Shown here piece by piece: positions 7,274 to 63,644 of a stretch of DNA of 64,000 nt. The stretch comes from Rhodothermales bacterium (GTDB taxonomy: Bacteria > Bacteroidota > Rhodothermia > Rhodothermales > VXPQ01), in the NCBI GenBank assembly GCA_951812335.1, contig OX638293.1, positions 1,032,731 through 1,096,730 on the forward strand, in the 5' to 3' direction. The translations under genes were made by a program, and so were the position numbers. The notes beneath the pieces are model-generated. The model made no database searches, had not been told where the DNA came from, and was given only the letters and a program-made list of their open reading frames with translations. Every line of letters begins with the position of its first letter. The first letter of the stretch is position 1.

Positions 7274-7490
7274 GAGAGAAACCCGATTATTTTACAAAAA
7301 AGGGAAGCGGAGACCGCAATTTAAAACATTACAAACATTCATGCCGTACAGGATCGCACGCCCGATGCTTGCAATGAAGCAGACGATGTATCTTTTCGTT
7401 TCCTGTCACGTATACGATCCGGGTGCTTGTATGCGCATCGTCCGTCTTGCCAGTCCGTCGCCTTCCCACGTCTGACCCTGCATTTTCCCC

Positions 7491-8747
7491 GTGGTCAAAA
7501 AACTGAATTTTCTGCTGTACGAGTTTCTCGAAGCGCTCCGGACTGCTTTACGCGCCATCGCTTCGCACAAAATGCGGTCGGCCCTGACGATGGTCGGCAT
7601 TGTGATCGGGATTACTTCGGTCACTTCGATGGTCACCGTCATCAACGGCATCGAGCAGTTTTTCGAGAACACGCTTTCCGAGTTGGGAACGGATGTGGTG
7701 TATATCGAAAAGTGGCCATGGACAGGCGGTCCGAACACCAAATGGTGGGAATACATGAATCGTCCGCAGATCGAGCCGGAGCTTGCGGAGGTCGTTTCGG
7801 ATCGCGCCCGGCTTATTACCGCCGCCGCTCCGGTCGTCTCCACGTCCAGGCCGGTCACATACGGCGGGAATTCCATTGCTCCCGTGTCGATTCAGGGATC
7901 CACCGGCGAGTATGAGCGCGTACATGTCGTGGAACTCGCTTCGGGGCGGTTCTATTCGGAAATAGACAACCGAACGGCGCGCCGTGTCGCCGTGATTGGC
8001 GCCTCGGTAGCGGAAACATTGTTTCCCGTCGAGAATCCGCTCGGCAAATCCATCCGTATTGCAGGACACCGGTTTCAGGTGATCGGCGTGATGGAGAAAA
8101 AAGGCCAGGGCGCCGAAGGTCCGGGATCTGTAGACCAGCAAGCGCGCATTCCCTTGCAGGCGTTTGCCAATGCCTTCGGCCTGCGCTACAGGGATATCTC
8201 GGTACAGGCAAGGCTTGCCCCGGGAGCCAATCTGGATCAGGCCAAGGATGAATTGACCGGCATCGTTCGCGTGGCGCGCTCCGTCGAGGCTGGCGAAGAC
8301 AACAATTTCGAGATCAACGAACAGGAAGAACTGCGGGCCCAGTTGGCCCCGGTCAAGCGCATGATCTACGGTGTCGGCATCTTCCTGACGGCGCTGGCGC
8401 TCCTTGTGGGCGGCATCGGCGTGATGAATATCATGTTTGTCTCGGTCAAGGAGCGTACGCGGGAAATCGGGATCCGCAAGGCAGTCGGCGCACGCCGCCG
8501 CACGATCCTCATCCAGTTCCTGATGGAAGCGATCGCGATCTGCCTTTTTGGGGGCCTCATCGGCGTCGGATTGGCCACTCTGTGCGCCCAGCTCATCAGT
8601 TTGGCCCTGTCGCTTCCGACCTTGCTGCCGCTTGGAACGATCTTTCTCGCTTTCGCGATTTGCACGCTGGTAGGGCTCGTTTTTGGACTGGCTCCGGCCT
8701 GGGCGGGTGCCAAATCGGATCCCATCGAATCGCTCCGCTACGAATAA
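7491..8747 (+). CDS. ABC transporter permease, MacB/FtsX-like
   Basis: N-terminal TM helix, large periplasmic domain and C-terminal FtsX-type 3-TM bundle (…ERTREIGIRKAVGARRRTIL…). Confidence 0.85.
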   Translation: MVKKLNFLLYEFLEALRTALRAIASHKMRSALTMVGIVIGITSVTSMVTVINGIEQFFENTLSELGTDVVYIEKWPWTGGPNTKWWEYMNRPQIEPELAEVVSDRARLITAAAPVVSTSRPVTYGGNSIAPVSIQGSTGEYERVHVVELASGRFYSEIDNRTARRVAVIGASVAETLFPVENPLGKSIRIAGHRFQVIGVMEKKGQGAEGPGSVDQQARIPLQAFANAFGLRYRDISVQARLAPGANLDQAKDELTGIVRVARSVEAGEDNNFEINEQEELRAQLAPVKRMIYGVGIFLTALALLVGGIGVMNIMFVSVKERTREIGIRKAVGARRRTILIQFLMEAIAICLFGGLIGVGLATLCAQLISLALSLPTLLPLGTIFLAFAICTLVGLVFGLAPAWAGAKSDPIESLRYE

Positions 8748-8770
8748 TCCAAACGATCCACGCTCTGTTC

Positions 8771-9994
8771 ATGGAACTTCGGGACATCATAGCTTCTGCC
8801 TGGAACTCCTTGCGCACCAACAAAATGCGCACCATGCTGACCTTGCTCGGCATGGTGATCGGCGTATTCGCCATCATTGTATCGGTTACGGCGGTGAAAG
8901 TGATCGACGTGTACTTTGAGGAAAAGATGTCTTTTCTCGGGACATCCACCTTCACGATCTCCCGCTACGAAAGCTTTACGGTCACCGACCGGGATTTCCG
9001 GTACCGCCCGAGTATTACGATGGAGCAGATTGACCGGCTCAAGCGGTCGCTGGACGAGTATCTGGTGGTGAGCGTCATCGAGGATTTCGACATGACCGCC
9101 ATCCGTTACGCCGCCCGCGAAACGGAACCCAATGTAGCCATTCTGGGCACCGACGAGAATTTTGCAGGCAACTTCAGTTATACGATCGAATACGGGCGCA
9201 ACTTTACGCCCGAAGATATCCAGTACGGCAGGAAGGTGGTGATCCTTGGGGCGAGTGTCGCCGAAGAATTGTTCGCAAGCGAAAACCCTCTTGGCAAGGT
9301 GGTTGAATTCGGCGGTGCGCGCTATCAGGTGATCGGCGTGCTGGAGCCCAAGGGCAATTTCCTGGGCTTCAACATGGACAACAGAGTGTTTGTACCGATG
9401 CAGACGCTCTTTCTGAGGTACGGCGGCGCCCATCGTAACATTGCCTCGACCAGTGTGCGTACGCCGGGCCCGCAATTTGTTACCGCCGGCATGGAAGAGG
9501 TGATCGGCCGCCTGCGGACCATTCGCAAGGTGCCGCCCGGCGAAGACAACGATTTCGTCGTTGAAACGAACGACTCCATGCGGGCCATCTTCGATCAGTT
9601 TACCACGGTGCTCACCCAGGCCGGCGCCGCCATCGGGCTTATTTCTCTTCTTGCGGCCGGCATCGGCATCATGAATATCATGCTTGTTACGGTTACGGAG
9701 CGAACGCGCGAGATCGGTATTCGCAAAGCGCTCGGCGCCCGCAGGAGAGACATTATGCGGCAATTTATTCTGGAGGCCATTTTCCTGTGCCAGATCGGGG
9801 GAGGCGCCGGTTTTCTTCTCGGCGTGCTGGCCGGTAACGGCACGGCGCTGTATTTTAACATTTCCGCCACAATCCCCTGGGTCTGGGCCGGCGTAACCGT
9901 AGCCATCGTAGCCTGCGTGGCCCTTGTGTTCGGCGGCTACCCGGCTCTCAAGGCGGCCCGACTGAATCCCATCGATTCGCTTCGCTACGAATAA
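8771..9994 (+). CDS. ABC transporter permease, MacB/FtsX-like (second paralogue)
   Basis: Same architecture as the preceding gene (…ERTREIGIRKALGARRRDIM…). Start at ATG 8771 (MELRDIIASAWNSL). Confidence 0.85.
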   Translation: MELRDIIASAWNSLRTNKMRTMLTLLGMVIGVFAIIVSVTAVKVIDVYFEEKMSFLGTSTFTISRYESFTVTDRDFRYRPSITMEQIDRLKRSLDEYLVVSVIEDFDMTAIRYAARETEPNVAILGTDENFAGNFSYTIEYGRNFTPEDIQYGRKVVILGASVAEELFASENPLGKVVEFGGARYQVIGVLEPKGNFLGFNMDNRVFVPMQTLFLRYGGAHRNIASTSVRTPGPQFVTAGMEEVIGRLRTIRKVPPGEDNDFVVETNDSMRAIFDQFTTVLTQAGAAIGLISLLAAGIGIMNIMLVTVTERTREIGIRKALGARRRDIMRQFILEAIFLCQIGGGAGFLLGVLAGNGTALYFNISATIPWVWAGVTVAIVACVALVFGGYPALKAARLNPIDSLRYE

Positions 9995-10592: not shown

Positions 10593-10847
10593 GGATACTC
10601 TGATCAAAACCACTTCGTTCAGCGCTTCACGTTCGCAAGTACAGGGTATCATGATTTCATCATCGGAATCAGCGAGAAACACTGCGAATTCGGGGCGTCG
10701 CGGGCGTGAAACGCCCTTCGGGAGGCAGAGAGAGGCACGCTGACCGTGTCATTCCTCATTATGTGGGGCCTGCCACATTGCTTCGTCATTCCTTGCCAGC
10801 GCACCCCTTTCAGCCTCTGAATCTTTGCGGATTTAATCAGAGTATCC
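10593..10847 (+). mobile_element. MITE-like 255-bp TIR element, copy 1 (reference orientation)
   Basis: GGATACTCTGATCAAAACCAC… …GCGGATTTAATCAGAGTATCC. Flanked by TAAA (10589-10592) and TAAA (10848-10851). Nearly identical to the copy at 42863-43117. Confidence 0.8.
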
Positions 10848-20646: not shown

Positions 20647-20695
20647 GGATACTCTGATTACGTCCGCAAAGCTCAGAGGCTGTGAGGAGGGTGCG
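20647..20695 (-). mobile_element. solo right-arm fragment (~50 bp) of the MITE-like element
   Basis: GGATACTCTGATTACGTCCGCAAAGCTCAGAGGCTGTGAGGAGGGTGCG matches the right arm of the full copies. Similarity is lost after about 20695. Confidence 0.7.
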
Positions 20696-39293: not shown

Positions 39294-39548
39294 GGATACC
39301 CTGATTAAGTCCGCGAAGTTCAGAGGCTGCGAGGGGTGTGCCGGCAAGGAATGACGAAGCAATGTGGCACAGGCCCCCACATAATAAGGAATGACGCGGC
39401 CAGCGTGCTTCTCCCGGCCTCCCGAAGGGCGTTTCACGCCCGCACTGCCCAAAATCCGCAGCGTTCCGCTAATTACGACGATGCCATTACGATATCCTTT
39501 ACGCACGAACGCGGAGCGCCGGTCGAAGCGGTTTCGATCAGAGTATCC
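39294..39548 (-). mobile_element. MITE-like 255-bp TIR element, copy 2 (most diverged)
   Basis: GGATACCCTGATTAAGTCCGCG… …GTTTCGATCAGAGTATCC. Left flank TATA, inner right flank TTAA. Confidence 0.8.
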
Positions 39549-39552
39549 TTAA

Positions 39553-39628
39553 TTCCGACGATGAAATCACGATGTCGTTTACGCGCGAAAGTAAAGTGCC
39601 GGGCGAAGCGGTTTACATCAGAGTATCC
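39553..39628 (-). mobile_element. truncated second element copy (left-arm ~76 bp) abutting copy 2
   Basis: TTCCGACGATGAAATCACGATG…GGTTTACATCAGAGTATCC aligns to the left arm of other copies. Followed by TGTA. Confidence 0.7.
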
Positions 39629-41303: not shown

Positions 41304-42863
41304 TTGTTCATGGACGATCGCGAAAAGAGGAGTGCCGATCTCGAGAGGCGCCGCGAAGAGGCTCGCCTCGGAGGGGGAGCGGAGCGCATTGCGCAGCAAC
41401 ACGAACGGGGGAAATTGACAGCCCGTGAGCGGATCGATATTCTCCTGGACGACGGGTCTTTTCAGGAAGTGGGTATGTTCGTGCGGCACCAGGTGCGGGA
41501 TTTCGGACTTGCGGATCGCCGGCCGTACGGCGACGGTGTGGTTACGGGTTTCGGCACGATCGACAGTCGCCTTGTCTATGTCTACAGCCAGGATTTCACC
41601 GTATTCGGCGGGTCGCTTGGACTTGCCCACGCTCGCAAGATCACCCGCCTTATGCAGCTGGCGCTGGAGAATGGGGCGCCCATTATCGGATTGAACGACT
41701 CCGGCGGCGCCCGCATACAGGAAGGCGTCGATTCGCTTGGCGGCTATGCGGAGATTTTTCTCCTGAACACCATGGCTTCGGGTGTAGTGCCGCAGTTATC
41801 CGCGGTGCTTGGTCCGTGTGCAGGCGGCGCTGTATACAGTCCGGCCATCACGGACTTTGTCTTTATGGCGAAAAACACGAGCTACATGTTCGTGACGGGC
41901 CCCAATGTGGTGAAGACGGTGACCCAGGAAGAAGTGACTGCCGAGGAATTGGGAGGTGCGCGCACCCACACCGAAAAAAGCGGGGTCGCACACATGGCCT
42001 GCGAGAACGAGGTGGAATGTCTGCACCGGATACGCGATCTGTTTGGTTTTATCCCGCAGAACTGCGAGGATTCCCCTCCTTTCGTCCAAACCGACGACTC
42101 GCCGGATCGCATGGACGAAGCGCTCAACGATATGGTGCCGGAGCATCCGAACAAACCCTACGACATGCTCGAAGTGATCCGGGGGCTTGTGGACGAGCGA
42201 AACTTCTTCGAGATTCATGCTGGCTTTGCACCGAATCTCCTTGTAGGTTTTGCCCGTCTCGGCGGTCGGTCTATCGGCGTGGTTGCGAACAACCCGGCTG
42301 CGCTGGCGGGCGTACTGGACATGGACGCCTCGGTCAAGGGTGCGCGTTTTGTGCGGTTTTGCGACGCCTTCAATATCCCGTTGCTCGTCCTGGAGGACGT
42401 TCCCGGATTTATGCCGGGAATCGATCAGGAATGGGGGGGCATTATCCGGCATGGCGCCAAGCTTCTCTATGCTTTCTGCGAAGCCACCGTGCCCAAAATA
42501 ACCGTCATCACGCGCAAGGCGTATGGGGGCGCCTACGATGTGATGAACTCGAAACATATCCGAGGAGATCTAAATTTCGCCTGGCCCACTGCGGAAATTG
42601 CCGTAATGGGGCCGAAGGGAGCCGTCGAAATCATCTACAAGCGCCAACTGGCCGAAGCGGACGATCCCGCAACGGCGGAAGAAGACTTTATCCGGCAGTA
42701 CCGGGATACGTTCGCGAATCCCTATATCGCTGCCGGACAAGGGTACATCGATGATATTATCCTGCCCGCCGAAACGCGGTATCGACTCGTCCGGGGGTTC
42801 GATATGCTACGGAACAAGGTAGCCCGCAATCCCCGGAAAAAGCACGGGAATATTCCCCTGTAG
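41304..42863 (+). CDS. pccB: acyl-CoA (propionyl-CoA/methylmalonyl-CoA) carboxyltransferase beta subunit
   Basis: Carboxyltransferase N and C domains (…[14 protein letters not shown]…, …[11 protein letters not shown]…). Ends KKHGNIPL. Confidence 0.9.
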
Positions 42864-43117
42864 GATGCTCTGATTAAGTCCGCAAAGATTCAGAGGCTGA
42901 AAGGGGTGCGCTGGCAAGGAATGACGAAGCAATGTGGCAGGCCCCACATAATGAGGAATGACACGGTCAGCGTGCCCCTCTCAGCCTCCCGAAGGGCGTT
43001 TCACGTTCGCGACGCCCCGAATTCGCAGTGTTTCCCGCTGATTCCGATGATGAAATCATGATATCCTGTACTTGCGAACGTGAAGCGCTGAACGAAGTGG
43101 ACTTGATCAGAGCATCC
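42863..43117 (-). mobile_element. MITE-like 255-bp TIR element, copy 3
   Basis: GGATGCTCTGATTAAGTCCGC… …GGACTTGATCAGAGCATCC. Near-identical to copy 1, with both termini carrying the same paired change. Confidence 0.8.
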
Positions 43118-43133
43118 TTTAGAAGGCGTCCGT

Positions 43134-55552: not shown

Positions 55553-55647
55553 AATACCTGATGTCGAGACCCCGGCTATATGGCCATCGCCATCCGGTTA
55601 TCCCTCATCTTCGTCCACAGGCACTCACCTCGCATTCCGATGATTAA

Positions 55648-55901
55648 GGATATTCCGATCGAAACCACTTCGCCCGGCACTTTACTTTCGTGCGTAAAGG
55701 ACGTCATGATTCCATCGTCGGAATCAGCGGGAAACACTGCGGATTCCGGGCGTCGCGAACGTGAAGCGCCCTTCGGGAGGCTGCGAGGGGCACGCTGGCT
55801 GCGTCATTTCTCATTATGCGGGGCCTGCCACACTGCTTCGTCATTCCTTGCCGGCGCACCCCTTGCAGCCTCCGGGCTTTGCGGACTTAATCAGAGTATC
55901 C
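55648..55901 (+). mobile_element. MITE-like 254-bp TIR element, copy 4
   Basis: GGATATTCCGATCGAAACCAC… …GCGGACTTAATCAGAGTATCC. Flanked by TTAA (55644-55647) and TTAA (55902-55905). Confidence 0.8.
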
Positions 55902-58498
55902 TTAAACACCTTCCCTGTCGTCTCGTCCCGTTTCTGTGCCTGGCCTTGCTTCCTGCCGTATCGTCTGCGTTTGCCCAGTCTTCGGGCAGGCTTGAAATCA
56001 TGCAACCGCCTGCCATCGAGGAAGACCTTGCTCTGTCGACGGACGACGGGATGCGCGTTATCCACGTGACGGACCGGCTGACCCGCATGCCGGAGGCTGT
56101 AGCCGCATTGCAGGCATATCATGAGGCGAAGGCGCTTGGCTTGCTGCCTGTCGCCAAGACCGCAGCATTCTACGAGGTCGGCTCCGAGAAGGATTTCAAT
56201 GTGTTTACCAATGTAAACGCGGACGACAGCCATTGGGAAACCCGCACGTTTACCCTGGTGGAAGAGAATGACATCGCCAACATATGGGTTGCCAACGACC
56301 AGGAGGGAACGATCGGCGAAAACCAGCTTGCGCAGATCGGAAACTATGTTCTTTCCGAAACCCCCGAAGACTCCTGGCGACCAGACAGGGGCATTATCGA
56401 AAACAACAACCATATTTTCGGCGACCCTCCGGCAGAGCCCAACCCGGACGGCAAGGTCGACATCCTCCTCTTCGACATCGTGGAAGGCGACGATGATTGC
56501 TGCATTCTGGGCTATGCCCATCCGCAAGACCTCAATCCCAATCCGAATCCGGGCGAGGGCAATGCAAGCAACATTCTTTATATCGACCTGCCCCAGGGTT
56601 TTGGCCGCGGTGTCCTTTCGCTCGCCGGCACCATCACCCACGAGTACCAGCATGTGATCCATTTTGCGTATCGTTCGGGCAGCAGCGGTGAACTGACCTT
56701 CGTCAACGAAGGGATGTCGGAATGGGCGGAACTCCTGAACGGGTTTCCGCCCCGATCCATTCGATATCTGGACGATCCGGGTGAAATTCGTTCCCGGTTG
56801 TTTAACTGGCGCGGCGGCGGAACGGTCGCGCAGGTGCAAAACGATTACCAGCGGGCAGGCCTTTTCACCACCTACATTGCGGATCGGATCGGGCCGGAAG
56901 CCACCGGGTCCATCGTGCGCGCGAAGTGCCCCTCGGGCGCCAACTATTGCCCGATAGGGTCCTGGCTCACCGGCGTGTCCGGATACGACCTGATTCTGAA
57001 AGATCACAACCTTACCACGGCGGATATCGTGGCGGACTTTCACACTGCGAATTTCGTCAACGACGCCGGGGTCGATGCGAAATATGCGTACAAATCTTCT
57101 TACCGGCAGGGCGTGAAGGCGGTATCTACCGCTGCGGTGGATACCCAGGTCGAGGCGGCGCCGTGGGAAGCCACGGTAAACGTGTCGAGCGGTGCTGCCG
57201 AATACCTGACCTGGGAGGGCGTGACGAACCTCACGCTGGAAATCAAGGACTTCGAGGATACAGGAGGCGGAGGCGGGTCCGGAGGAACGGGCGCCCGGAT
57301 TGCTGGAGGGGGCGGCTATGCGAAAACTGCGGGCGCAAGCAACCGCTCCAACCTGTCGCTGCGGCTGCTCACCGAAACGGCAACGGGGGCGAAGCAACTC
57401 GTGGATCTCGATCCCGATACGCAAACGCACCCGGTTTCCGGGGGGTATGCGCGGGTGACGCTTATTATCGCGAATACCCGGGCGTCGGAGAGCTCCAGTC
57501 TCCCGTCCATCAAGCTCGATATTACCGGAAACTGGGGCGGCGCTGCGTTCGAGGTGGCCACCGTGGCCTACGAGACCGGTAAAAACGAGGACAGGGTATT
57601 CCTTGCAGGGAACGCCGAGGATATCATGGCCCAGCGGTATGACGTACCCGCCGATAGCCGCCTGGCCGCCGTCTTCGCAGCGCCGGTATACGACAACCAG
57701 TACGGCAACGCGACGGCTCCTGTGGGCGCTCCCCGCGATTTCACTCTCAAGGTATGGGATGTGGGCGATGACGGTTTTCCGGGGGATGAACTCTATAGCC
57801 TGGATGTGGACGAAAACCCCGATGCATCGCACATTGCTTTCGGTACACCCCCTGCGCCCTCCACGTATTCGTTTTTGAGGGTCGATCTTCCGGCGGACGA
57901 GGAGGCGCTTTCGACGCTTCCGGATAGGGTTTTTATCGGCCTTGCCAACAAGGGAATCGACATCAATTACCTTTCTCCCACGCTGGCTCGAAGCACTGTG
58001 CAGGATACCTTGGCATATTGGTACAGCACGCTCCCGGATAGTACCGGGACTCTTGTCACGAGTTGGCGCGCCTTGGCGACACTTCGGTTGTGCCGCAAGG
58101 CGAATAACGATTGCGATCGGGACGACGAAGAAGACGGGTGGTTCTTGTTCGCCGGGCAGGTGTTTCCCATCCGCGCCCGGTTCCTTACTCCTTTGGGCGG
58201 CCCTACCTCCACAGACGATCCGGCGGAACTTCCATCGAGCGTGAGGCTGGCGCAGAACTATCCGAACCCGTTCAATCCGGCCACGTCGATTTCCTGGACG
58301 CAACCGGTTTCCGACCGGGTCCGGCTGTCCGTGTACAACCTGCTGGGGCAAAACATGGCCACGTTGGCGGATGGTCTGCACCCGGCAGGCGAGCATGAAG
58401 TGCAACTGGATGCATCGGGGTGGGCCAGCGGCGTATATGTCTATGTGCTTGAAACGGGTGCGCACATGCTGTCCCGGCACATGGTGCTGTTGAAATAA
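55901..58498 (+). CDS. T9SS-secreted zinc metalloprotease (HExxH-X18-E gluzincin) with C-terminal sorting domain; start codon unresolved
   Basis: Signal-peptide-like LPCRLVPFLCLALLPAVSSAFAQ, HEYQHVIHF…VNEGMSEW, and a C-terminal …LAQNYPNPFNPATSISW…GVYVYVLE… Por/T9SS CTD. The first ATG after the repeat is at 56000. Confidence 0.75.
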   Translation, partial: LKHLPCRLVPFLCLALLPAVSSAFAQSSGRLEIMQPPAIEEDLALSTDDGMRVIHVTDRLTRMPEAVAALQAYHEAKALGLLPVAKTAAFYEVGSEKDFNVFTNVNADDSHWETRTFTLVEENDIANIWVANDQEGTIGENQLAQIGNYVLSETPEDSWRPDRGIIENNNHIFGDPPAEPNPDGKVDILLFDIVEGDDDCCILGYAHPQDLNPNPNPGEGNASNILYIDLPQGFGRGVLSLAGTITHEYQHVIHFAYRSGSSGELTFVNEGMSEWAELLNGFPPRSIRYLDDPGEIRSRLFNWRGGGTVAQVQNDYQRAGLFTTYIADRIGPEATGSIVRAKCPSGANYCPIGSWLTGVSGYDLILKDHNLTTADIVADFHTANFVNDAGVDAKYAYKSSYRQGVKAVSTAAVDTQVEAAPWEATVNVSSGAAEYLTWEGVTNLTLEIKDFEDTGGGGGSGGTGARIAGGGGYAKTAGASNRSNLSLRLLTETATGAKQLVDLDPDTQTHPVSGGYARVTLIIANTRASESSSLPSIKLDITGNWGGAAFEVATVAYETGKNEDRVFLAGNAEDIMAQRYDVPADSRLAAVFAAPVYDNQYGNATAPVGAPRDFTLKVWDVGDDGFPGDELYSLDVDENPDASHIAFGTPPAPSTYSFLRVDLPADEEALSTLPDRVFIGLANKGIDINYLSPTLARSTVQDTLAYWYSTLPDSTGTLVTSWRALATLRLCRKANNDCDRDDEEDGWFLFAGQVFPIRARFLTPLGGPTSTDDPAELPSSVRLAQNYPNPFNPATSISWTQPVSDRVRLSVYNLLGQNMATLADGLHPAGEHEVQLDASGWASGVYVYVLETGAHMLSRHMVLLK

Positions 58499-62625: not shown

Positions 62626-63384
62626 CTACTCCTCAAGAAAATCGGCGAGAAATTCGTTGGCGACGATTCCACTGAAGCGGTAAACCTGTGCTTCGAACAG
62701 GTTCGCGAAGTGACGGACGATTTTTTTCTTCACGTCCTGCGGGTCGACAGGATGCCCTATCTCCTTTTCGAGGGACGTTACGTTGGAATCCGAAATTCCG
62801 CAGGGCACGATGTGCGAGAACCAGTTCAGGTCGGTGCTTACGTTGAGTGCAAACCCGTGCATGGTTACCCAGCGACTGCACCGTATGCCCATCGCACATA
62901 TTTTCCGGGCGGTTTCACTCCCTGGATTTGTTGCGGTCTCTGCATCGATCCAGACTCCGGTGCGTCCCGCGATGCGTTCGCCCTGCACGCCGTACGATGC
63001 GCAGGCGTCGATGATGGTTTGTTCGATCCGTCGCAGGTACTTGTGTATGTCGGCAACGAATCGGTCGAGGTCCAGTATGGGGTAGCCCACGATCTGTCCC
63101 GGGCCGTGGTAGGTAATGTCTCCCCCACGATCGATCTCGACGAACTCGGCGCCCCGTTTTCGAAGCAGATCCTCGGAAACGAGCAGGTTCCGGCGATTAC
63201 CGCTTTTCCCGATCGTGTAGACTGGCGGGTGTTCGACGAAAACGAACACATGGGGGATGATTTCCGGAGGGGTGCGCCGCTTCGCGGTAATGAGACGATG
63301 CTGGATGCGCTGCTGCAATGCCCAGGCGGGCCGGTAGTCCATCCGCCCGATATCGCAGATCATTACGGATCTGGATGTGCTCAT
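62626..63384 (-). CDS. lipB: lipoyl(octanoyl) transferase
   Basis: …RGGDITYHGPGQIVGYPILDL… and …KICAMGIRCSRWVTMHGFALNV… Start at ATG 63384, because the longer ORF runs into the repeat. Confidence 0.9.
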   Translation of the reverse strand: MSTSRSVMICDIGRMDYRPAWALQQRIQHRLITAKRRTPPEIIPHVFVFVEHPPVYTIGKSGNRRNLLVSEDLLRKRGAEFVEIDRGGDITYHGPGQIVGYPILDLDRFVADIHKYLRRIEQTIIDACASYGVQGERIAGRTGVWIDAETATNPGSETARKICAMGIRCSRWVTMHGFALNVSTDLNWFSHIVPCGISDSNVTSLEKEIGHPVDPQDVKKKIVRHFANLFEAQVYRFSGIVANEFLADFLEE

Positions 63385-63390
63385 ACTATA

Positions 63391-63644
63391 GAATACTCTG
63401 ATTAAGCCCGCAAAGTTCAGAGGCTGCGAGGGGTGCGCCGGCAAGGAATGACGAAGCAGTGTGGCAGGCCCCACACAATGAGGAATGACGCAGCCAGCGT
63501 GCCCCTCGCAGCCTCCCGAAGGGCGCTCCGCGTCCGCGACGCCCCGAATCCGCAGTGTTTCCCGCTGATTCCGACGATGGAATCATGATGTCCTGTCCTC
63601 GCGAAAGTGAAGTGCCGGTCGAAGTGGACTTATTCAGAGTATCC
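63391..63644 (-). mobile_element. MITE-like 254-bp TIR element, copy 6
   Basis: GAATACTCTGATTAAGCCCGC… …GGACTTATTCAGAGTATCC. Flanks TATA (63387-63390) and TATG (63645-63648). Confidence 0.8.

Follow-up and report, generated by a model that had tools for sequence, protein, structure and literature searches.

Within a window of 64,000 nucleotides (64 kb) from a Rhodothermales bacterium (assembly GCA_951812335.1, contig OX638293.1, forward-strand positions 1,032,731 to 1,096,730), positions 42863-43117 are one copy of a small non-coding mobile element with IS5-type transposon ends. The element, ~255 bp long, multi-copy, dispersed and without a transposase gene, represents a new family of structured miniature inverted-repeat transposable elements (MITEs). 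Its transposon identity, the IS5-type ends, the covariation between the arms of its stems and the difference in evolutionary rate between a conserved core and a variable insert are directly supported by the comparisons reported here. The explanation towards which we lean is that this MITE, whose ends come from the IS5 group of insertion sequences (ISs), would be mobilised in trans and that its core is kept paired by selection acting on a folded strand, most probably RNA.

To define the family, we searched one genome per species for exact matches to the invariant 22-mer GCCTCCCGAAGGGCGYTYCRCG and obtained at least 101 stretches. A profile search (nhmmer) of the window and of the scanned loci (~790 kb from about 8 genomes) then gave 178 matches and 84 distinct full-length copies. 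The alignment of these 84 copies (A2) is the basis of the family-wide column numbers and counts used throughout. Among the matches listed, nearly all were located in seven metagenome-assembled genomes (MAGs) labelled as Rhodothermales, and five in a single MAG labelled as Pseudomonadales. Parts of OX638295 and OZ246975 aligned with the window at about 90% and 82-89% identity, respectively. In uncultured Rhodothermales, three complete chromosomes carried at least 18-27 matches apiece, and the plasmid and viral collections gave no match to the element. Two pattern matches (L018 and L048) fell outside the family and turned out to be chance matches in unrelated sequence.

The six full copies of the window, like the 84 copies overall, were bordered by 21-nt terminal inverted repeats (GGATRCTCTGATTAAGTCCGC on the left and its near-complement on the right). 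The 4-bp flanks were identical in 40/84 copies and differed by one base in 29/84, whereas shuffled re-pairing gave on average 11.5 identical flanks and never more than 20; other duplication lengths gave 0-7 matches. TTAA was the commonest target duplication (19 copies), followed by TTTA (5) and ATAA (3), and TATA, CTAA and CTAG were also found. One copy was nested within another (locus L070), and deletion variants of ~187, ~155-165 and ~128 nt were observed. We rejected the possibility of a small protein gene, as indels of 1, 2 and 4 nt in the core leave no conserved reading frame. At locus L040, a copy is present where the homologous region of the window (7320-7370) has none, the intergenic sequence being too diverged to be read as an empty site.

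The ends of the element relate it to the IS5 group. The MITE subfamily with GGAAGG ends matched E. coli IS5A, whose ends read GGAAGGTGCGAATAAG and GGAAGGTGCGAACAAGTCC, at 13/16 positions (GGAAGGTGCGAAYAAG vs GGAAGGTCTGATYAAG), and it shared with E. coli IS5 the same T/C asymmetry at position 13. We also scanned metagenomes for the 21-nt end followed by non-MITE sequence; of the 25 stretches obtained, about 20 contain a single recurring IS flanked by ctag, ctaa, ttag or ttaa; YTAR is the target site of IS5. Two complete copies of this IS were recovered, L127:1789-2935 (with a CTAG duplication) and L109:172-1318, both of 1147 bp. Its protein of 318 amino acids contains the Pfam domains DDE_Tnp_1 (E 9e-31) and DUF772 and is 56% identical over 316 amino acids to the IS5 transposase InsH of E. 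coli. The left end of the IS is GGATGCTCTGATTAAGTCCAC in both L127 and L109, whereas its right end is different (GGAACCTCTGAATAACTGGG), so that the two ends are unequal (GGATGC...AAGTCC vs GGAACC...AACTGG, with differences at positions 4, 5, 12 and 16).

Positions 1-19 of the focal MITE were identical to positions 1-19 of the L127 IS (19/19), and positions 235-255 matched the reverse complement of IS positions 21-1 (20/21). Both MITE ends thus match the left end of the IS only, which indicates that both are copies of that left end and that the core is unrelated to the IS. A derivation of the core from the IS was accordingly discarded, the comparison with L127 matching at the ends alone (~21 nt). 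The autonomous element with the same left end was located in other metagenomic contigs, outside the MITE-bearing genomes. A protein search retrieved thousands of IS5 transposases ("IS5 family transposase"), the named relatives being marine gammaproteobacteria with ~72-73% identity, and none of these could be tied to a MITE-bearing genome. Within the MITE-bearing loci, we tried and rejected candidates for a parent IS, since the end-like pairs separated by 0.8-4 kb enclose ordinary genes and not transposases.

Two side observations concern such ends. At L116:7184-7223 (contig LXNI01000117.1), a full MITE copy is preceded, at a distance of 18 nt, by a lone left end of 21 nt (GGATGCTCTGATTAAGTCCGC); isolated sequences resembling ends are present at many other loci too. 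In L109, an open reading frame (ORF) at approximately 1328-2425, with the N-terminus MRFYTNSHQYVCGIDLH..., begins about 10 nt past the right end of the IS5-group element. Judging by this N-terminus, it looks like an IS110-family transposase, and an IS110-type element may have inserted next to this IS5 end.

The consensus fold obtained with RNAalifold on the 84-copy alignment contains 58 pairs. Stem P1 consists of the terminal repeats with a short extension (columns 1-29 with 251-278). P2 is a 23-bp stem (columns 31-55 with 120-142) at whose apex two invariant AGGAATGAC segments face each other, forming the invariant internal loop AGGAAUGAC, and P3 is a central hairpin (columns 81-88 with 98-102). 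P4 is a long-range stem between GGCGCTTCAC and GTGAAGCGCT (columns 149-158 with 241-250) that encloses an insert of 68-77 nt, absent from the ~187-nt deletion variants. It was recovered in 78/84 copies by a strict pattern, with 98% of cells paired, and varied little (pair 157-242 is AU in 62 copies, GC in 8 and A.C in 11). As RNA, the focal copy had a predicted energy of -125.6 kcal/mol on the + strand (z -10.1) and -114.8 on the - strand (z -8.2); as DNA, the corresponding values were -60.6 (z -6.8) and -52.8 (z -4.9). The fold corresponds to no known RNA family in Rfam 15, whose covariance models recovered only three tRNAs of the window at the gathering threshold and noise (E above 1) in a permissive search.

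A preliminary description of the window, whose coordinates and strings are all present in the sequence, had proposed from the copies seen there that paired substitutions preserve three stems. The change at the termini is indeed paired (GGATGC...GCATCC in copy 42863 vs GGATAC...GTATCC in copy 10593), and so is the one in the central hairpin, which reads ATGTGG-GGCCTG-CCACAT at 10761-10778 and GTGTGG...CCACAC at 63459-63476, copy 55648 being half-changed. The internal stem between GAGGCTGCGAGGGG (55777-55790) and CCCCTTGCAGCCTC (55859-55872) also exists, copies 42863 and 10593 having A/T at position 8 where copies 63391 and 55648 have C/G. It had been drawn too neatly, however: the arm of copy 10593 actually reads GAGGCAGAGAGAGG, which adds mismatches, and the position-8 pair is broken in copies 39294 (C.C) and 60277 (A.G). 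The further conserved small hairpins reported in the same description are specific to subfamilies (GGGCG...CGCCC in 15/84 copies and CAGYG...CGCTG in 21/84), and the GGGCG segment belongs family-wide to P4 and not to a local hairpin. As for the CUUCGG-type loop mentioned there, it occurs on the complementary strand only, the better-folding strand having the unpaired junction CCGAAG at this place.

In the alignment of 84 copies, standard pairs occupied 97.4% of the cells of the 58 pairs, and 24/58 pairs showed changes on both sides (269 cells). As controls, we used 500 column shuffles, which gave on average 14.7 pairs and 71.5 cells with such changes and never reached the observed values (0/500), and slid stem partners, which gave 5-11 pairs and 11-34 cells. 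Covariation was then evaluated against a null modelled on R-scape, in which the substitutions of each column, reconstructed by Fitch parsimony on a neighbour-joining tree, were re-dealt over the branches according to branch length (60 null alignments; G-test score with average-product correction; 38,503 column pairs). The six best of all these column pairs fell within the three proposed stems: 5-274, 4-275 and 19-260 in P1, 81-102 in P3, and 39-135 and 44-130 in P2. With this tree-based null, 7/58 proposed pairs had E<0.05. In P2, 10/20 pairs had both-side changes, 96.2% of cells were paired, and 39-135, 40-134 and 44-130 were significant; in P3, both-side changes affected 3/4 pairs, with 81-102 significant (UA in 50 copies, CG in 25).

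It could be argued that these paired changes arose by chance or reflect the shared ancestry of a few lineages. With nothing but the six window copies, a single event could indeed account for each paired change, and the preliminary description had cautioned that the copies fall into about two lineages. This caveat disappears with the larger set: parsimony counted 37 double changes, each on a single branch, so the paired changes are not one or two historical events. Together with the shuffles, the far lower values of slid partners and the location of the six best pairs within the structure, this makes an artefact extremely improbable. Covariation thus exceeded a phylogeny-aware expectation in each of the three stems, in agreement with the initial suggestion of selection on a folded single strand, be it RNA or single-stranded DNA (ssDNA).

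The different parts of the element evolved at very different rates. On terminal/internal branches, we counted 4.15/3.12 substitutions per column in the insert and 1.56/1.00 in the unpaired core, compared with 2.67/1.82 in P2, 2.44/1.33 in P1 and 1.15/0.40 in P4. The insert aligned poorly, which inflates its rate to some degree, but the contrast with the core is large. The unpaired core was thus among the slowest-evolving classes, only P4 being slower. Between genomes, identity was 83-90% in the core and 37-73% in the insert; the window copy and those of the Pseudomonadales-labelled MAG were 83-84% identical in the core and 37-47% in the insert. We conclude that the core is under purifying selection, with loops more constrained than most stems. 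The evolutionary rate of stems was intermediate between that of loops (slower) and that of the variable insert (faster), as is usual in structured nucleic acids.

The preliminary description did not state that its first stem is the terminal inverted repeat of a DDE transposon (with a transposase of the Asp-Asp-Glu catalytic type), which makes symmetric recognition by a protein the obvious alternative. The ends of the MITE subfamilies are matched (GGATAC/GTATCC, GGATGC/GCATCC, GGAAGC/GCTTCC, GGAACC/GGTTCC and GGAAGG/CCTTCC): positions 4 and 5 vary widely among subfamilies, almost always identically at both ends, and only one clear hybrid of end types was noted (L013:3922-4174). This alternative is weakened by the existence of a natural IS5-group element with the same left end and a different right end, while the MITE ends co-vary. 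Since the IS works with unequal ends, recognition by the transposase is not sufficient to account for the matching of the MITE ends, which is explained either by pairing or by copying between ends.

More generally, the element could act as double-stranded DNA, either through symmetric sites for dimeric proteins or as a cruciform with both strands folded. There is no doubt that P1 is a terminal repeat bound by the transposase, ATGTGG-N6-CCACAT is a short palindrome such as dimeric proteins bind, and the end variants are largely genome-specific, as if adapting to a resident transposase. However, positions 4 and 5, at which the ends of a working IS differ (as they do at 12 and 16), are among those with the strongest covariation in the MITE, and the P2 arms, 23 bp long and about 65 nt apart, exist as 68 haplotypes among 84 copies, which is hard to fit with a co-evolving protein. 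A cruciform or a double-stranded site also predicts no difference between G.T and A.C, whereas a moderate G.U excess is seen. We consider action as double-stranded DNA quite improbable. As no protein-symmetry explanation fits P2 and P3, the conclusion that selection keeps the stems base-paired, and hence that the element is constrained to fold, is well supported.

We then considered which strand folds. RNAalifold gave -168 kcal/mol for the forward strand and -139 for the reverse, and the forward strand was more stable in 62/84 copies. In the forward-strand-derived structure with symmetric internal mismatches filled in, G.U exceeded A.C by 477:59 cells, a pair set that is biased to the forward strand. 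A strand-neutral re-test, based on the intersection of the forward and reverse alifold pair sets, gave a weaker ratio of 216:88 cells and 29:13 column pairs (about 2.5:1); the union of both sets gave 586:246 cells and 43:22 column pairs. On the tree, 119 changes from standard pairs led to G.U and 32 to A.C, event counts that tree error at high-frequency polymorphisms can inflate; on internal branches, the numbers were 31 and 4. For comparison, the background transition asymmetry in the insert was 180:131 (1.37). G.U was present in about half or more of the copies at 13-266, 16-263, 20-259, 46-128, 76-103 and 149-250 (31% at one of them), and no pair was mostly A.C. The forward strand, 5'-GGATRCTCTGATTAAG (the + strand of the window at 42863), is thus moderately favoured, the G.U excess on one strand in the strand-neutral pair set being suggestive only. 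The conflict of strand evidence raised in the preliminary description is therefore eased without being closed.

These data also bear on the idea that folding has no function, the stem arms being copied onto one another by template switching in quasi-palindromes or by mismatch correction in snapped-back strands, with a core made of protein-binding sites. Intrastrand template switching, which yields paired changes in the absence of selection, could plausibly act on arms of 21-23 bp separated by 60-210 nt. The predicted fold of either strand is far more stable than that of shuffled sequence, and the strand asymmetry drops to about 2.5:1 in the neutral pair set, with a background bias of 1.37. The stronger conservation of loops than of stems fits sequence recognition as well. 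Arm conversion should nevertheless erase G.T and A.C alike, yet G.U persists across subfamilies at the six pairs listed above, and changes to G.U outnumber those to A.C on the tree. In addition, stems are slower than the adjoining insert, and therefore constrained and not merely homogenised. We regard arm conversion without a functional fold as improbable, although less so than a role of double-stranded DNA.

According to the explanation that we favour, an IS5-group DDE transposase supplied in trans would bind the ~21-bp terminal repeats and insert the element at TTAA/YTAR-like sites, duplicating 4 bp; in a MITE-bearing genome, its gene would be flanked by GGATRCTCTGATYAAG. The ~190-nt core between the ends, which has no relation to the IS, would fold into P1, the P2/P3 hairpin and P4, the latter closing the freely evolving insert, and the stems would be kept paired by selection on the folded single strand described above. 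The folded molecule would be an RNA made by transcription running across a copy. Its fold may provide a compact module, nuclease-processed or stabilising, in the transcript, as in other structured bacterial MITEs. RNA is most probably the folded form, and we rank it first because, to our knowledge, IS5-family transposition has no ssDNA step. A further reason is that structured, transcribed MITEs with compensatory changes are established, as exemplified by bcr1 (PMC3184786).

Several observations weigh against this explanation. The strand asymmetry is modest once the neutral pair set and the background bias are taken into account, and G.T is the most tolerated mismatch in folded DNA too, so that the G.U excess cannot separate RNA from ssDNA. 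No sigma-70-type promoter or intrinsic terminator was detected in the element, promoters of the Bacteroidota type being outside the scope of the tool; with no internal promoter found, a transcript with both P1 arms would need a start site external to the element. The copies lie close to gene ends, and orientation relative to neighbouring genes, as determined from our own codon-usage gene calls, exhibited no sense bias: between same-direction genes, 15 copies were sense and 29 antisense (15 others lay between convergent genes and 14 between divergent genes), and a gene reads into the forward 5' end in 30 copies and into the reverse strand in 44. The lack of bias speaks against a host advantage conferred locus by locus by the forward-strand RNA and is consistent with a constraint on those lineages from which new copies continue to arise. 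Finally, a tblastn search with InsH in the window and the 101 loci (~790 kb) did not find the cognate transposase, and the IS-bearing contigs have 43-50% GC compared with 58% for the window. Given these low-GC contigs and its gammaproteobacterial relatives, the L127 IS should be seen as a close relative of the mobilising element and not as one shown to be resident.

Alternatively, the folded form could be an ssDNA used in mobilisation: the strand would snap back, P1 would join the ends and the shape made by P2-P4 would be recognised by the transposase or by a host factor, so that only lineages keeping the fold would go on producing copies. The constraint is indeed visible on internal branches, which correspond to source lineages and on which changes to A.C are especially rare. 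Orientation is random relative to both neighbouring genes and GC skew (42:31 on the complete chromosomes, not significant), and a strand defined by the element fits this better than one defined by transcription or replication. The co-variation of the MITE ends despite the unequal IS ends would mean that complementarity is needed by the MITE and not by the IS, and the focal copy folds as DNA on either strand. On the other hand, the DDE transposases of the IS5 family act on double-stranded ends. Moreover, the known ssDNA transposons (IS200/IS605, IS91 and REPIN moved by RAYT) have neither terminal inverted repeats nor a 4-bp duplication, whereas the element has both, and the strand bias that mobilisation through ssDNA requires is only moderate in our data. 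Such a role of ssDNA appears unlikely to us, if somewhat less so than arm conversion.

A broader proposal is that the ~190-nt core is a single-stranded module on which the element depends, either as the folded strand, DNA or RNA, needed for mobilisation by an IS5-type DDE transposase, with the two ends paired through P1, or as an autonomous structured non-coding RNA riding on IS5 ends between phyla. We mention it as a doubtful but testable extension.

As a separate observation on GC skew, between 414 and 1546 kb of OX638295, a run of nine - strand copies, where the skew is positive, precedes copies that are mostly on the + strand, where the skew falls to about zero or becomes negative. This hints at a replichore effect in OX638295 only, which is absent from the pooled 42:31 ratio. 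Also worth recording, copies with GGAAGG or GGAGGG ends occur in the Pseudomonadales-labelled MAG on contig OZ241339 (L055, L076, L085, L089 and L100); if the label of this MAG is right, the family would apparently have crossed phyla.

The features of the focal copy and the other copies of the window are listed in the table. The six full copies of the window comprise three on each strand. The TAG stop codon of ORF 41304-42863 is made of the last two bases of the left duplication and the first G of the element, and the right duplication with its flank (43118-43122) reads TTTAG. TAG being rebuilt on the left (42859-42863) and TTTAG present on the right, this shows that the insertion took place within the original stop codon and restored it. 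The duplication of copy 10593 (TAAA/TAAA on the + strand of the window) corresponds to TTTA in the orientation of the element. In copy 60277, the deletion lies precisely between the two AGGAATGAC direct repeats, an outcome expected if the repeats slipped or recombined with each other.

Table. Coordinates in the 64-kb window of the focal MITE copy, of its parts and of the other copies and fragments of the family.
Feature	Coordinates	Strand	Basis
Focal MITE copy	42863..43117	+	blastn and nhmmer matches
Left copy of the target-site duplication, TGTA	42859..42862		
Right copy of the target-site duplication, TTTA (one mismatch vs left copy)	43118..43121		
Left terminal inverted repeat, 5' arm of P1, GGATGCTCTGATTAAGTCCGC	42863..42883	+	IS end match, covariation
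Right terminal inverted repeat, 3' arm of P1, GTGGACTTGATCAGAGCATCC	43097..43117	+	IS end match, pairing counts
5' arm of P2, GAGGCTGAAAGGGGTGCGCTGGC	42893..42915	+	columns 31-55 of A2 pairing with 120-142
Near-invariant unpaired AAGGAATGACGAAGCA, first AGGAATGAC repeat, one side of the P2 internal loop	42916..42931	+	
Central hairpin P3, ATGTGG-CAGGCC-CCACAT	42932..42949	+	compensatory changes, covariation
Near-invariant unpaired AATGAGGAATGACACG, second AGGAATGAC repeat, other side of the P2 internal loop	42950..42965	+	
3' arm of P2, GTCAGCGTGCCCCTCTCAGCCTC	42966..42988	+	pairing and covariation
Near-invariant junction CCGAAG, P2 to P4	42989..42994	+	
5' arm of P4 (long-range stem), GGCGTTTCAC	42995..43004	+	columns 149-158 of A2 with 241-250
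Fast-evolving variable insert enclosed by P4	43005..43079	+	identity, rates
3' arm of P4, GTGAAGCGCT	43080..43089	+	pairing
Full copy, 95.7% identity to the focal copy	10593..10847	-	
Full copy, 88%; flanks TATA/TATG	63391..63644	+	
Full copy, 85%; target duplication TTAA/TTAA	55648..55901	-	
Full copy, 80%; between divergent genes	39294..39548	+	
77-nt right-end fragment, directly after copy 39294	39552..39628	+	
Copy without the P2 apex; target duplication TTAA/TTAA	60277..60493	-	
49-nt left-end fragment	20647..20695	+	

Open frames run from the element into its neighbours at many loci, among them L086, L053, L090 and L034 (with an overlap of about 160 nt), and at 55580-58498 and 62626-63474 of the window. 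Under a first-start-codon rule, neighbouring ORFs begin within the element and are thereby lengthened by 150-200 nt at the N-terminus, a likely source of gene-start mis-annotation in these genomes. Another repeat of the window, a direct repeat of 96 nt with 80% identity (8400-8495 and 9647-9742), lies within the adjacent + strand ORFs 7491-8747 and 8582-9994; it looks like the trace of two tandem paralogous genes and not like a mobile repeat.

The family adds an undescribed and abundant member to the structured bacterial MITEs. Its signature is clean: an IS5-group origin for the 21-nt ends only, a conserved and paired core of 190 nt, and an adjoining insert free to vary. The matched ends of the MITE, compared with the unequal ends of the IS, raise the question of whether the ends and the interior of an element mobilised by a DDE transposase must pair in a single strand; if true, a single-strand-dependent MITE of DDE type would be undescribed for the IS5 family. 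In practice, the element breaks assemblies, lies against or across stop codons and gives rise to spurious N-terminal extensions of ORFs; its annotation therefore improves gene calls in these MAGs. The literature that we searched contained no described MITE of Rhodothermales and no IS5-type MITE with such a fold.

Compared with known systems, the element resembles IS5 and the L127 IS in its matching terminal repeats and in its 4-bp duplication at YTAR-like sites. It differs in having no transposase gene and nothing in common with them beyond the ~21-nt ends, and also in that its ends are matched and co-varying whereas those of the L127 IS are unequal. Like Correia/NEMIS of Neisseria and ERIC of enterobacteria, it is small with terminal inverted repeats, and its working would be similar if the fold is that of an RNA: according to De Gregorio et al. 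and related work, transcripts of Correia/NEMIS and ERIC reportedly form long hairpins that affect mRNA processing and stability. Correia elements, however, have a TA duplication and essentially one end-to-end hairpin, in contrast to the three-branch fold and 4-bp duplication observed here, and ERIC has no known transposase. The invariant loops, the dispensable insert and the lack of an Rfam match further distinguish the present element from both.

The closest parallel in structure is bcr1 of the Bacillus cereus group, a transcribed, MITE-like element in which compensatory changes maintain an RNA structure (Delihas 2011, PMC3184786); the same paper also depicts NEMIS as a folded MITE. The bcr1 element (with bcr2/3) shares with ours a MITE-like organisation, a size of ~150-250 bp, dispersal between genes, a short AT-rich target duplication and a multi-stem "cruciform-like" fold kept by compensatory changes (PMC3184786). 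It differs by a 5-bp duplication and the absence of a known partner transposase, whereas our element has a 4-bp duplication (TTAA/YTAR) and IS5-group ends. It also belongs to another phylum and has no known sequence relation to the present element, from which we set it apart without sequence comparison. REP/REPIN-RAYT, the ends of IS200/IS605 and integron attC sites are comparable in the conservation of structure over sequence, in compensatory changes and in strand specificity. They lack both the DDE-bound terminal inverted repeats and the 4-bp duplication that the present element possesses. Relative to all of these systems, what is less usual about the present element is how strictly its loops are conserved, its apparent spread across phyla and the difference between the ends of the MITE and those of the IS.

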